Source of the DNA: a virus
Lineage: Duplodnaviria > Heunggongvirae > Uroviricota > Caudoviricetes
Virus record (IMG/VR): IMGVR_UViG_3300027320_000003
Location: 6,192 to 70,191 of that record
Direction: 5' to 3' (one strand)
DNA: 64,000 bases
Part shown: piece by piece, positions 3,128-12,654 of the stretch
Position numbering within the stretch: the first letter of the stretch is position 1
How the letters are laid out: each line of letters begins with the position of its first letter
Position numbers and translations under genes: made by a program
Notes under the pieces: generated by a model
Seen by the model: only the letters and a program-made list of their open reading frames with translations
Told to the model about the DNA's origin: nothing
The model's database searches: none

Positions 3128-3230
3128 TAACCTTATTCATTAAAATTGTGCTGCTTACTAAGCAATCAATATTTACTCCTTAGTAAATTTTAACACCCGC
3201 AGTAAATAACATCATTTTTGTAGTTAATAC

Positions 3231-4142
3231 GTGAACACTGCACAAGCATTCCTAGACGCGCGCCTCTATTGGCTAACCTGGAGCCGCGATCGTAAGGCCA
3301 CAGGCCGCACCATGAACCGGATGTTTGCCTCTATCCCGAGAATTGGTGAAGGTCTACGCTTGGCCATTCCAGATGGGATTAGCACAAACCCACTCATGGT
3401 TCCGCGCCATTTCGGTGCTGACGGTGGTGTGCAGGCTAAGATTTGTGATAAGCTACGAGCCCTGGTAAGTTGTATCAATTCTGATGCGGATCTAAATAGG
3501 TTGATGGACGAGGTTGACAATCCGAGGGATGGCGGGTCGTTCACTGATTGTTTCATTGCCCGCGGAGCCGGTGATACGCCGATTGTCATTTGTGAGTTTA
3601 TAACCTACGCTAACCTAAAGTATGTCCAGCTACCTTTATTGGATGTAAAAACCGCCGAGCGGTATCGAGAATGGACACGACGGATGCTAGCCTATGTTAT
3701 CAAGTATCAATCAGCTCAGCTCAATAACCACCTCACCTGGAAGGCGCTCTATATCGCATCTTGTGGATTAGTGCTAAGTGACACAGTTGCACTCGAGATT
3801 GCGAACTACCTCTTTAACACCGCATGCTGGATGATTGACCATGATGGATCGATGCCACTCGAGCTAATGCGAGAGGACAAGTCAATGTCCTACACCCGCA
3901 TGAACCTAGAGGCGCTGGTCTGGCTTGACCGCATCTTTGGCAAGCGGTGTGAGGTTACACTCGCCCTGCAGAATTTTGAAGGCATGTTGGACGATCCTCT
4001 GGGTTGGATTAAGCGGTATGGCCTACCTGGCCAGCGTATGCCCGGTAACACCTCCAACTGGCGCTGGTTGCTATGGAGTCGTGATAACCGCAGCACCGCC
4101 AACGAGATGGACAGCTATATTTCGTCGTATCTTCGTGTGTAG
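3231..4142 (+). CDS. Alginate-lyase-like polysaccharide lyase (alpha/alpha toroid, PF05426-type)
   Basis: LNNHLTW motif and IDHDGSMPLELMREDKSMSYTRMNLEAL segment resemble the NNH and DG-x-x-P-x-E-L-x-R...Y motifs of this family. Confidence 0.65.
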   Translation: MNTAQAFLDARLYWLTWSRDRKATGRTMNRMFASIPRIGEGLRLAIPDGISTNPLMVPRHFGADGGVQAKICDKLRALVSCINSDADLNRLMDEVDNPRDGGSFTDCFIARGAGDTPIVICEFITYANLKYVQLPLLDVKTAERYREWTRRMLAYVIKYQSAQLNNHLTWKALYIASCGLVLSDTVALEIANYLFNTACWMIDHDGSMPLELMREDKSMSYTRMNLEALVWLDRIFGKRCEVTLALQNFEGMLDDPLGWIKRYGLPGQRMPGNTSNWRWLLWSRDNRSTANEMDSYISSYLRV

Positions 4143-4154
4143 TTATGGTATATC

Positions 4155-4889
4155 ATGGCAACCACACCATTTGACAAATCTCGCATTACCGTCTCGGAGG
4201 CGTGTAATAACCTGTCGCAGATCAATGCTGGCCTAATAGACCAACTCCTAGGGCTACGCCGTCGATTGGCTGCTCTACAAAACGCTGCTGATCTACTTAA
4301 GAATTCCGCCAGCAATTACAACCTGCCAGATCTTAACCGCATGGTACCAGCGAAGGATGTAGGATTGGACACCTATAACAAGTTAAAGGCTGCATGTCCG
4401 GATATAAATTTGCCAAATATCAACGGTATCGCCGATCTTAACGCGCTCTATCAAACCTTTAAGGATGCATACCGGGCGATTATTAACGCGCTTGACACGA
4501 GTCCACTAGGCATGCTCGCCCAATTGGAGGGACAGTTCATTAGCGCCATTCAGGATATGCTTAACAGTCTTGGCGGTAACGAATCGCTCCTGCATTGCCT
4601 ATGTCAATCCGAGAACATCTATGCCCAATTTCCAACCTGGGACCAAAACAAACAGAATGCTATCGACACCTACAAATACTCCAAAGGAGTTGTTGATGGC
4701 AGCGAAAACGGGCTGCTAAACAGTAACTTAAAGAGCAAGGTGCAGGACCTGAATAATACCAAACAGTTGCTAACCGGCCTGTCAGAGGCCAAGGTTGGTG
4801 AGGTTGGCAGCTATGACTCTGCCTCAAAGAAATCAACCGATCTCGTATCCACCGAGGTAGACAGTTTTAAGACTAAGGTTGGGTTTTAA
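4155..4889 (+). CDS. Hypothetical helical protein (possibly virion)
   Basis: 244-aa ORF, GTAGTTAT motif upstream. Confidence 0.65.
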   Translation: MATTPFDKSRITVSEACNNLSQINAGLIDQLLGLRRRLAALQNAADLLKNSASNYNLPDLNRMVPAKDVGLDTYNKLKAACPDINLPNINGIADLNALYQTFKDAYRAIINALDTSPLGMLAQLEGQFISAIQDMLNSLGGNESLLHCLCQSENIYAQFPTWDQNKQNAIDTYKYSKGVVDGSENGLLNSNLKSKVQDLNNTKQLLTGLSEAKVGEVGSYDSASKKSTDLVSTEVDSFKTKVGF

Positions 4890-8313: not shown

Positions 8314-9108
8314 TTACACCTGAGGTTCGTCAGACGGTTGATCTTTGCTCTTACGGCGACGGCGTTTCTTACCGGTCTCCTCAATAGCAACCATAGGTGT
8401 TGGTTCAACCGAGGCTGGTGAAACTGGGATCGCCTGTTCAACTGGCTTAGTAGTTCCAAGAGCTTTGCCGAGCAGTGCACTCATGTCGGTAGTAATTGGA
8501 ACGTCGTCAATCTCCTGTGCCTCTTCGACTATAGGTTGCGGTGCGCTAATGGCCCTCTCTTTCAATCCGGAGTATGGGTTAGCTTTCGCTTGGCGAGGTA
8601 CGTTTCGTGATGTACCTGTTTGAATGTCTCGTGGGTTGCTTGATCCATTGTCTTGGTTTGCTTCAAATCCGATTGGAGCGTTAATCAGGCCAGCATTCAC
8701 CGCTTCATTCACCGTGAATCCCTTAACAGGGTTGCCAAGTTGGCGTCCGTCCTCTACCTTTGTTTGAGCGTTTGGCATGGTTGGGCGAAGCGCCTCACCA
8801 TGGACATCAATAAACACGTTCTGCGATCCACTGATGACAGAGGTACCGCGTTCACGGTTAGGTTTAACCGGGCGGCGTAGATGGTTGATTGGTACAAGCT
8901 GACCATTCGGAGATTTCTCAGCGGCGAGTAATCCTACGCCAACGTGCTTAGCGAGCTCAGGATCGTTAACCTTTAGGCCATCAGAATCGATGATGTGCTT
9001 CTTTGATCCAACGTTGAATTGGAGTCCAAGTCGACCCGTGGAAATTTGAATTGGATAATCATTTGGGTTAAAATAACCCAACACATCGGTTTGTATGGCA
9101 TTTGACAT
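8314..9108 (-). CDS. Hypothetical protein with basic C-terminal tail
   Basis: 264-aa ORF; GTTCT-N7-ATG upstream; KKRRRRKSK tail. Confidence 0.7.
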   Translation of the reverse strand: MSNAIQTDVLGYFNPNDYPIQISTGRLGLQFNVGSKKHIIDSDGLKVNDPELAKHVGVGLLAAEKSPNGQLVPINHLRRPVKPNRERGTSVISGSQNVFIDVHGEALRPTMPNAQTKVEDGRQLGNPVKGFTVNEAVNAGLINAPIGFEANQDNGSSNPRDIQTGTSRNVPRQAKANPYSGLKERAISAPQPIVEEAQEIDDVPITTDMSALLGKALGTTKPVEQAIPVSPASVEPTPMVAIEETGKKRRRRKSKDQPSDEPQV

Positions 9109-9131: not shown

Positions 9132-9749
9132 TCAGAATAGGAAGTTTTTTAGGCGAGTGGGGTGTGTGGCGTTCAGGTCTATCCGGTTCTTTGCTAGGAG
9201 ATATGTTACCGCCGCCGAAAGTGCATCACTCATGGCCCAGGCGGTTGACTCATCAATCTTATCTGGCTGGTCCTTGGGTGGACGTTTCATCCTTGGCCAC
9301 ACGATACCAGGCCATAGCTTGGATATAGACCGCAGCACCGTGTTCTTGTCACCATCAGCGGCGTGCCAATTCGTAATACCAGTGCTGTTCTTCTTGCTAT
9401 TCAACGGCGTTACTGGATAAACCTCTAGATTAGCGTCAAAGAGATGCTTAATGCAGGCGACAGAGGCCGCCGTAAATGCCGTACTCATCGCCATACCACG
9501 AATAGCACCAGCGCTCATTGCACCACCTGTTGGGTATTCAATAACAATCGTCTCTGGTCGCCATTCCTTATAGAGCTCAAGGATGCGCACCGCATGCTCA
9601 GAGATACGGCCAACATTAAAACCTGTTACGCCATCCTTCTTATCCTTGTACTTTGGACGAAAGCATTCAAGGTGTACAACGGCTAGCGTCTGGCTGTCTA
9701 GCACCGCAATACCTGGTGCGGTAAGACCGGCATCAATGGCAAGTATCAT
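9132..9749 (-). CDS. ruvC: RuvC-like Holliday junction resolvase
   Basis: ILAIDAGLTAPGIAV, IVIEYP, MSDALSAA acidic RNase H-fold motifs. Confidence 0.75.
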   Translation of the reverse strand: MILAIDAGLTAPGIAVLDSQTLAVVHLECFRPKYKDKKDGVTGFNVGRISEHAVRILELYKEWRPETIVIEYPTGGAMSAGAIRGMAMSTAFTAASVACIKHLFDANLEVYPVTPLNSKKNSTGITNWHAADGDKNTVLRSISKLWPGIVWPRMKRPPKDQPDKIDESTAWAMSDALSAAVTYLLAKNRIDLNATHPTRLKNFLF

Positions 9750-11087: not shown

Positions 11088-11168
11088 CAATTGGCCCAAG
11101 GATTTGATCCTCTAGTCCATATATAATCCTCTGCACGCCATATATGGCATGGCAGTACTTAACCTCCC

Positions 11169-11492
11169 ATGCCCTATAAGTTTCGTATCGTAGTTGCTAT
11201 TTCTAAATCAAAATCCGGTGACAATTGGCACCACTCCACGTTTCATCTCAAGTCAGACACAACGTCTAGGTGCAGTGTAACAGGGTTGCGCGCCATCAAT
11301 GCTAATGGGCGCGTGGTTGTTACCCATCATGGTCGCAAGCTAAAGCACATCGTTCCAAATGATACCACTGAACAAACCGTATCATATGCAGCAGTTGACC
11401 CGGCAAAACGTCCGCGGCACACCATTTCACGAGTTGCTGCGGCACTTCGGTATGCGGCAAGTCGCAGATCAAGATTAGAGGTTGTCATTTAA
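11169..11492 (+). CDS. Hypothetical basic protein
   Basis: 107-aa ORF; GTACTTAA-N6-ATG. Confidence 0.6.
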   Translation: MPYKFRIVVAISKSKSGDNWHHSTFHLKSDTTSRCSVTGLRAINANGRVVVTHHGRKLKHIVPNDTTEQTVSYAAVDPAKRPRHTISRVAAALRYAASRRSRLEVVI

Positions 11493-11519
11493 AGAGTTTC
11501 CAACACACCTTGTATTCTT

Positions 11520-12205
11520 ACATCAAGGATCAACTATCCCCTGAGGAGTTGCAGTACAATGAGACTGGCCTATGCCATACTGAGAATGGACCCGGTGCAG
11601 ATCTCCCCGTCAGTCTACCCAGGACAAAATGTTATCCCTCCAAATCACTACATCGCCTAACCGATGTAATAGCTGAATTGAGTATTGCATAAACGCTGCT
11701 CAGTTCGAGACCACCTCAACGGTGAATCGGCCCGGTCTCAGTTAGAACAAACGTAAGGCATAGGCTGCCCAAATGGGACTATGCTGTAGCTATGGGTGTC
11801 GAGAACATACACCCACTATTAATCTTTAGGGCACCAGTAACATGGTGATCTCGCTAGGTCAGGCACTCGTGCCAGTCAAGTTCTCGTGGATATGGATCTA
11901 CAGTGATACGTTTGTTGGGAGCCGAAAGTCTAGCACAGCGTAGTGCTAGGTAGTAGAAGGATGAGTATCGGATAGTGATTCGCCGAATATGGAGACTAGG
12001 CATACCTCCAACCAGCCGTGAAAAAGGAAGACGAAGAGTCGTCGGCTACGTGAATCATGCTGCTCAGCTACTAGCCGTGTCATCTATACGATGCAAGCCC
12101 ACGGACAACTAAGGTTGCCCTTAAGGGCAACCGAGCCAGCAGCTATAGGTTCATACCTCCGCGGCATGGTAACACCTCCACGTCCACCGGGTAAATGCCA
12201 ACCGT
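11520..12205 (+). ncRNA. Candidate large structured ncRNA (~680 nt)
   Basis: No credible ORF; at least 9 hairpins, a 20-nt perfect palindrome, a long-range 7-bp pairing; TATTCT element at 11513-18 just upstream. Confidence 0.55.
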
Positions 12206-12303
12206 ACTTCCTCCATGAGGACCTCTAGGCGCACCGTTGAACATACGTTCGAAGCTTGGGCCACAGGGCAGGCCATATCCCATTAACAGCATGTTCTACT
12301 AAT

Positions 12304-12654
12304 ATGGGTACGGATAAACCACGCAACAATTTAACGGCCGACCAATTAGCTGTAGTAGAGGGTATAGGCATACTTGACCTAGCTGTGGATGTCGTCATAA
12401 ACAGTGCTGGAGACATCCTGTTCACGGTAGAGAATAGACGATACTACCTAGGCATGCTCAAGAATGGAAAGATACACTTCCTACAGAGATGGGTGGTAGG
12501 ACGGAACGCTGTAGAAACCGATGGCCATACCACCTATGTTAATATTGGCATGCCACGTGCCTCCGGAGATATAGCCATGGATATGGTGGTAGAGAGCGTC
12601 CGTGCCATGATATTCCCGGGGGTGGCCGCTGACCTCGAGATTATGACTGAGTAG
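12304..12654 (+). CDS. Tagged-module family protein (ends IFPGVAADLEIMTE*)
   Basis: GTTCT-N6-ATG start at 12304; C-terminal P-x3-A-x3-hh-x-E. Confidence 0.65.
   Translation: MGTDKPRNNLTADQLAVVEGIGILDLAVDVVINSAGDILFTVENRRYYLGMLKNGKIHFLQRWVVGRNAVETDGHTTYVNIGMPRASGDIAMDMVVESVRAMIFPGVAADLEIMTE

Follow-up and report, generated by a model that had tools for sequence, protein, structure and literature searches.

A gene-free gap in a T4-like phage genome as candidate locus of a large structured RNA

Large phage RNAs and how the locus compares

Bacterial and phage RNAs longer than 600 nt are few. ROOL (RF03087) has an average length of 581 nt (PMC5737381), and the kissing loops in ROOL and GOLLD cages are intermolecular (PMC12286853). 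The candidate RNA described here shares with these two families the size range, the phage origin and a multibranched fold with several candidate pseudoknots. In contrast to them, it matches neither model and does not lie beside tRNAs, and its helices and any multimer are putative. With the Polynucleobacter-1 motif (RF01718; PMC2864571) and its extended 'twin-box' form of aquatic T4-like phages it has in common a T4-like phage as carrier, a knotted fold, a short word that recurs, a few words that look alike, a similar 3' hairpin and a nearby resolvase gene (RuvC-like, 9132-9749, 1.8 kb from the candidate). However, the boxes of that family stand ~50 nt apart and the repeats of the candidate 151 nt, and the invariant GGTACCG is missing. 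Phage-borne tmRNA (RF00023) occurs in related phages, twice near the same marker gene, whereas the candidate has neither tRNA-like ends nor a tag frame. In S. aureus, C-rich loops of RNAIII and RsaE pair with ribosome-binding sites. The candidate likewise has a structured fold in which C-rich words that complement Shine-Dalgarno sequences recur; unlike it, RNAIII and RsaE are host RNAs with specific targets, there is no sequence relation, and the pairing of the candidate is predicted only.

The first-pass annotation had proposed a large structured non-coding RNA that could not be matched to GOLLD, ROOL, OLE or MISL. A structured RNA is indeed the best reading of the plus strand, while identity with GOLLD or ROOL is not borne out. 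Among all Rfam 15 families, including OLE, MISL, HEARO and raiA, none reaches its gathering score in the region, and at E<=10 a single chance match appears (sR17, E 1.9), so that the candidate fits no family. The model of the conserved GOLLD 3' domain (RF02032) finds nothing at E<=10 in the record or the region, and the tRNA adjacency of GOLLD is absent, the nearest tRNA (20215) being 8 kb away. The ROOL covariance model gives no match in a search whose controls were equally blank and whose sensitivity to distant members is unproven. Neither the RF01718 model nor profiles from 86 members match. Twin-box membership was considered in view of words held in common and was rejected, as the full-length profile, the sub-profiles and the tail model are all blank, the GGTACCG core is absent, and two identical 7-nt boxes ~50 nt apart around the 3' hairpin are not found in the candidate. 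The Polynucleobacter-1 core itself is present in at least 120 viral contigs (L294-L413), and the tails examined there contain two identical 7-nt boxes ~50 nt apart.

The tmRNA model is negative in the record and positive in relatives and controls; the candidate shows no CCA, no G3-U70 and no tag frame. RNase P RNA (RF00010, conserved regions CR I-V) is likewise negative, with controls positive and relatives matched, as is the group I intron (RF00028, P7 G-binding core with J6/7 and J8/7), again with positive controls. Inspected by eye, the helices of the 5' domain follow a P3/P4/P8-like order, with a proper P7 or J8/7 missing. Group II intron domain V (AGC triad, 2-nt bulge and GNRA loop) has no match in the Rfam search of the region, and the AGCCGUG hairpin at 12073-12104 is without the AGC triad pairing and GNRA loop of domain V. 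In its size and its fold the candidate is similar to the large ornate phage RNAs, and it is a member of no named family tested.

No homolog of the RNA is found by blastn against phages and plasmids, at the DNA level in 22 portal relatives, in 35 viral records with the same promoter, or in 401 genomes from the phylum to which a Luteolibacter genome belongs. In viral and metagenome contigs, pattern scans return nothing or chance matches, and searches with the neighbouring proteins in viral contigs and protein sets lead to no homolog. Covariance models built from the single sequence of each domain are equally blank over 1.67 Mb of DNA from related phages, as are the 3' domain model over 46 virus records and the 5' domain model over 149 genomes. 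As these searches would miss a family below roughly 65% identity, the absence of relatives is not established. Three other assemblies of the same phage are identical across the region; the phage is contained in samples JGI 3300009026, SRR5468224 and ERZ27246579. The structured gaps of relatives do not align to the candidate; one alignment to a relative's gap with z 3.1 was discarded as noise, overlying a tmRNA. As a single sequence that offers no covariation, the candidate stands behind those large phage RNA families whose helices covary.

The gap, its promoter and its neighbours

The phage record comprises 143,750 nt, is ~67% complete and encodes a T4-like portal, whose closest relatives have ~50% identity and are uncultured. 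Within the window, which is the whole stretch of 64,000 nt that was analysed, the locus had been described as the longest ORF-poor stretch. This claim can be extended: with ORF-free defined as lacking a 70-codon ORF, 11493-12255 (763 nt) is the largest gap not only of the window but of the whole record. Each of the six frames contains 10-17 stops there, codon scores are negative throughout, and the gene caller reports nothing within 11088-12303. The boundaries and promoter elements are as follows.

11155-62, plus strand: class-II promoter-like element GTACTTAA, 6 nt ahead of the ATG of the ORF 11169-11492
11169-11492, plus strand: ORF of 107 aa, upstream boundary, skipped by the gene caller
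11511-11518, plus strand: extended -10 box TGTATTCT of a class-I promoter, complete, with no ATG behind it
11525-12200, plus strand: candidate non-coding RNA of 650-690 nt (~680), both ends predicted
12304-12654, plus strand: first called gene (116 aa), downstream boundary from gene calling

The TATTCT reported at 11513-18 is present exactly there and is part of the extended -10 box. In this phage, the class-I motif T[TA]TCCA-N16-TATTCT has 18 copies in the record, mostly with an ATG close behind. The match at 11511 is only partial because TTTCCA (11497-11502) lies at N10, out of register. A transcription start near 11524-11525 is plausible from the -10 box and, for an untranslated RNA, unproven. 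Class-I promoter-like sites span positions 1564-60615 of the window and beyond, and TTTCCA-N16-TATTCT is also found in dozens of small uncultured phage contigs. Assigning a host through the promoter motif yielded no host.

The second class, GTANTTA(A/T), has 41 sites in the record and resembles a leaderless promoter, with an ATG a few bases behind 20 of them. These sites (4139, 10164, 11155, 20307, 31585, 46745 and 49666 of the window among them) often precede structural genes, and the class is probably the late promoter in place of T4's TATAAATA, which occurs once in the record. Because GTACTTAA stands 6 nt upstream and about half of such elements precede an ATG, the ORF 11169-11492 is probably a real leaderless gene, which would place the beginning of the RNA after 11492. 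Its product is basic and has no family match. Apart from the resolvase gene, none of the flanking genes tested has a PHROG match, and three flanking genes searched in depth gave no useful relative. Further upstream in the window, an alginate-lyase-like gene (3231-4142) adjoins tail-collar genes.

A tRNA with a CUA anticodon (amber suppressor-like) is located at 22815-22888 of the window and also occurs in relatives G002 and G017, yet TAG serves as stop. Read-through of TAG, prompted by this tRNA, was rejected as a way to code in the gap: TAG ends 17 of the 51 long ORFs of the window, and the read-through frames of the gap match no Pfam family and score as non-coding. A contig of 34,923 nt (G031, L157-L158) comes from JGI sample 3300009026, which also contains this phage; as it agrees with the phage in GC and promoter motif and has no proteins in common with it, it is probably a missing part of the same genome.

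RNA genes of the relatives include tmRNA as well as Y-RNA-like and RNase P-like ones. In three of them, the homolog of the gene at 8314-9108 is found 5-14 kb from tRNA or tmRNA genes, which loosely places the candidate in the RNA-gene neighbourhood of the clade. In relative G012, L060 contains a tmRNA that ARAGORN did not report, along with two matches to YrlA-like Y RNAs that stay under the gathering score (3211-3641, 4588-4652, 11669-11780), and L053:19850-20000 together with L054:1-450 holds a CRISPR-like repeat-spacer array with a period of ~72 nt. In G017, an RNase P-like match of ~210 nt (L072:16335-16548, minus strand, E 1.8e-14, below cut-off) sits in a tRNA cluster, and a gene-free stretch of ~460 nt (L071:17776-18237) is strongly folded (z about -7), has no Rfam match and cannot be aligned to the candidate.

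Predicted architecture of the RNA

The folding energy of the whole region was compared with shuffles, a check suggested by the first-pass annotation. On the plus strand the region has a modest advantage in stability over shuffles (z -2.3 to -2.5), on the minus strand none (z -0.4). The plus-strand signal is concentrated in two domains, 11539-11831 and 12011-12170, with z about -4.4 each, values that are optimistic because the domain ends were picked after inspection. Both domains fall within the top 1-2% of genome windows. The predicted elements are listed here.

11539-11831, plus strand: 5' domain, a stacked rod with side hairpins (z -4.31, 0 of 150 shuffles as low; minus strand -1.66)
11539-46/11824-31, 11547-56/11782-91, 11567-76/11757-66 and 11579-85/11736-42, plus strand: rod helices of the 5' domain, 35 bp stacked
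11649-68, 11675-11706 and 11793-11815, plus strand: hairpins of the 5' domain
11746-11916, plus strand: candidate pseudoknot, 10 perfect pairs between the unpaired bulge 11746-55 and 11907-16
11800-11886, plus strand: candidate pseudoknot, 7 perfect pairs between the hairpin loop 11800-06 and 11880-86
11832-12010, plus strand: middle linker, weakly folded alone (z -0.2 to -0.8)
11832-47 and 11930-49, plus strand: hairpins of the middle linker
11643-48/11975-80, 11630-35/11837-42 and 11693-96/11938-41, plus strand: weaker candidate knots, none above chance individually
12011-12170, plus strand: 3' domain, a branched rod recurring in every fold tried (z -4.47, 0 of 150 shuffles as low; minus strand -2.1)
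12030-43, 12075-12104 and 12113-32, plus strand: hairpins of the 3' domain
12113-12132, no strand assigned: perfect 20-nt palindrome, an 8-bp hairpin with self-complementary loop, terminator-like on the minus strand
11590-12192, plus strand: long-range helix 11590-97/12185-92 of 8 perfect pairs that may close the structure
11637, 12005, 12156, 12175 and 12210, plus strand: five CCUCC words, the repeated 9-mer pair CATACCTCC among them

The rod helices of the 5' domain are almost entirely paired in the prediction, and a 300-nt window over this domain is undercut by a single one of 96 genome windows of that length. For the 3' domain, none of 359 same-size windows is as low. The main helices contain G-U pairs. 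The two candidate pseudoknots join unpaired segments of the 5' domain to the middle; together they amount to 17 bp, a total with P about 0.005 against a shuffled middle and equalled by 2 of 358 genome windows. The closing helix 11590-97/12185-92 competes with a short 4-bp helix within the 5' domain. Three terminator-like matches lie on the minus strand of the region.

Every hairpin arm of the first-pass annotation that came with coordinates is located exactly as given, and the three hairpins listed without coordinates are found at 11832-47, 11863-74 and 12075-12104. As a set they stand in part: perfect hairpins of at least 7 bp are in excess (the region has 4 and shuffles 0.72, with p 0.003; this count is matched by 4 of 209 genome windows), while those of 5 bp are at chance level (p 0.16). 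Both 9-mer direct repeats are where they were placed, in a number expected by chance (p 0.24). Three of the listed pairings have their arms in place and are nevertheless probably not formed, being in competition with better-supported helices: GAGACC/GGTCTC with 11579-85/11736-42, GCATAG/CTATGC with 11567-76/11757-66 and 11547-56/11782-91, and the long-range ATAGCTG/CAGCTAT with 12059-64/12138-43. A composite model of 22 helices leaves out the first two because they compete with the rod; 21 of its helices share no nucleotide, and the sole overlapping one is the ATAGCTG/CAGCTAT pair. The first-pass annotation had overlooked the 35-bp rod, the candidate pseudoknots and all five copies of CCUCC.

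Competing readings and a possible role

We consider it likely that a structured RNA of ~680 nt, one that would represent a new family, has its own stand-alone gene in the gap. Non-coding sequence, strand-asymmetric folding, two strong domains, candidate pseudoknots and the -10 box at the 5' edge together favour this reading of the plus strand. The locus could instead hold two separate cis-elements, a structure of ~290 nt behind 11169-11492 and a leader or terminator of ~160 nt before the downstream genes. A middle that folds no better than shuffles, the low z of the whole region, the out-of-register -35 box and the three minus-strand terminator-like matches agree with such a division. We regard it as rather improbable, however, as two perfect knots run from the 5' domain into the middle, the downstream gene appears by eye to own a GTTCT-type start element at ~12293, and 760 nt is long for a leader in a phage preferring leaderless mRNA. 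Quite improbable in our judgement is that the locus is a DNA element, such as an origin or a site where a protein binds, that it is the remnant of a gene or that its structure arose by chance. The strand asymmetry and the G-U pairs of the main helices speak for an RNA; also against this reading are the lack of an iteron-like array, the stops and codon scores in all six frames and the read-through frames without a Pfam match. On the other hand, no search found conservation, the perfect palindrome could be a DNA site, and choosing windows after inspection inflates z.

If the stand-alone RNA is accepted, its role can be read in several ways. It is unlikely, though in keeping with the size of ROOL, the multibranched knotted fold and the phage location, that the RNA is a ROOL/GOLLD-like molecule whose loop-strand pairs and 20-nt palindrome act between molecules, as the kissing loops of the cages do, to give an RNA-only multimer or cage that would shelter or sequester cargo. 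ROOL and GOLLD occur near tRNA islands, and the 8314-9108 homolog in relatives is near tRNA or tmRNA genes, but the nearest tRNA in this phage is distant, neither model matched, and intra- and intermolecular pairing are indistinguishable from sequence. Somewhat doubtful is a set of other roles, for instance a scaffold binding the 107-aa protein, a sponge for a defence protein or a highly diverged tRNA/tmRNA-like mimic within the 3' domain; the estimate pools several mechanisms, none of them directly supported. These draw on the same domain folding, on the RNA genes of the relatives and on the 3' domain, where the eye can make out a 6-bp stem followed by an A, and a hairpin like a T-loop. Against them stand the blank tmRNA, RNase P and group I models, whose controls were positive, and the missing CCA, G3-U70 and tag frame; RNA binding by the upstream protein is conjecture.

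ACCUCC is the anti-Shine-Dalgarno core of 16S rRNA. CCTCC occurs 5 times in the region versus 0.59 expected, a word selected after inspection, and the copy at 12210 may fall beyond the 3' end of the RNA. ACCTCC occurs three times and is absent from every other 690-nt window (830 windows). Among 5-mers, CCTCC shows the strongest over-representation (P 3.6e-4), and CCTCCA leads the 6-mers (P 7e-5); both values are uncorrected, and that of the 5-mer fails correction for 1024 words. Only two of the five words (11637, 12156) are predicted to be clearly unpaired. They may also be features of the DNA, since similar CCTCC tracts trail some phage -10 boxes. The enrichment is a lead and not a result.

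From this lead, we put forward a decoy as our mechanism of choice, which is a guess and an unlikely one. Transcription would begin from the -10 box at 11513, and the RNA would fold into a compact knotted platform whose stable fold displays several anti-Shine-Dalgarno-like CCUCC words. On host mRNAs, these words would base-pair with ribosome-binding sites of the GGAGG type; alternatively, they would bind a protein that reads them. Host translation would thereby be dampened, leaving the many leaderless mRNAs of the phage unaffected. The 18 class-I and about 20 class-II leaderless-type promoters of the phage support this scheme, and GGAGG stands ahead of 5 of 151 phage ATG ORFs, compared with 29 for AGGA. 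The decoy is the only proposed mechanism with a sequence feature behind it. Its boldest form, in which a largely leaderless phage makes a new-family RNA of ~680 nt that titrates host ribosome-binding sites globally, an RNA-based translation shut-off, we hold to be very unlikely.

A new fold of such size would be a good target for cryo-EM. If true, the CCUCC decoy would give an ornate RNA a testable job and would tie it to the leaderless expression of the phage.
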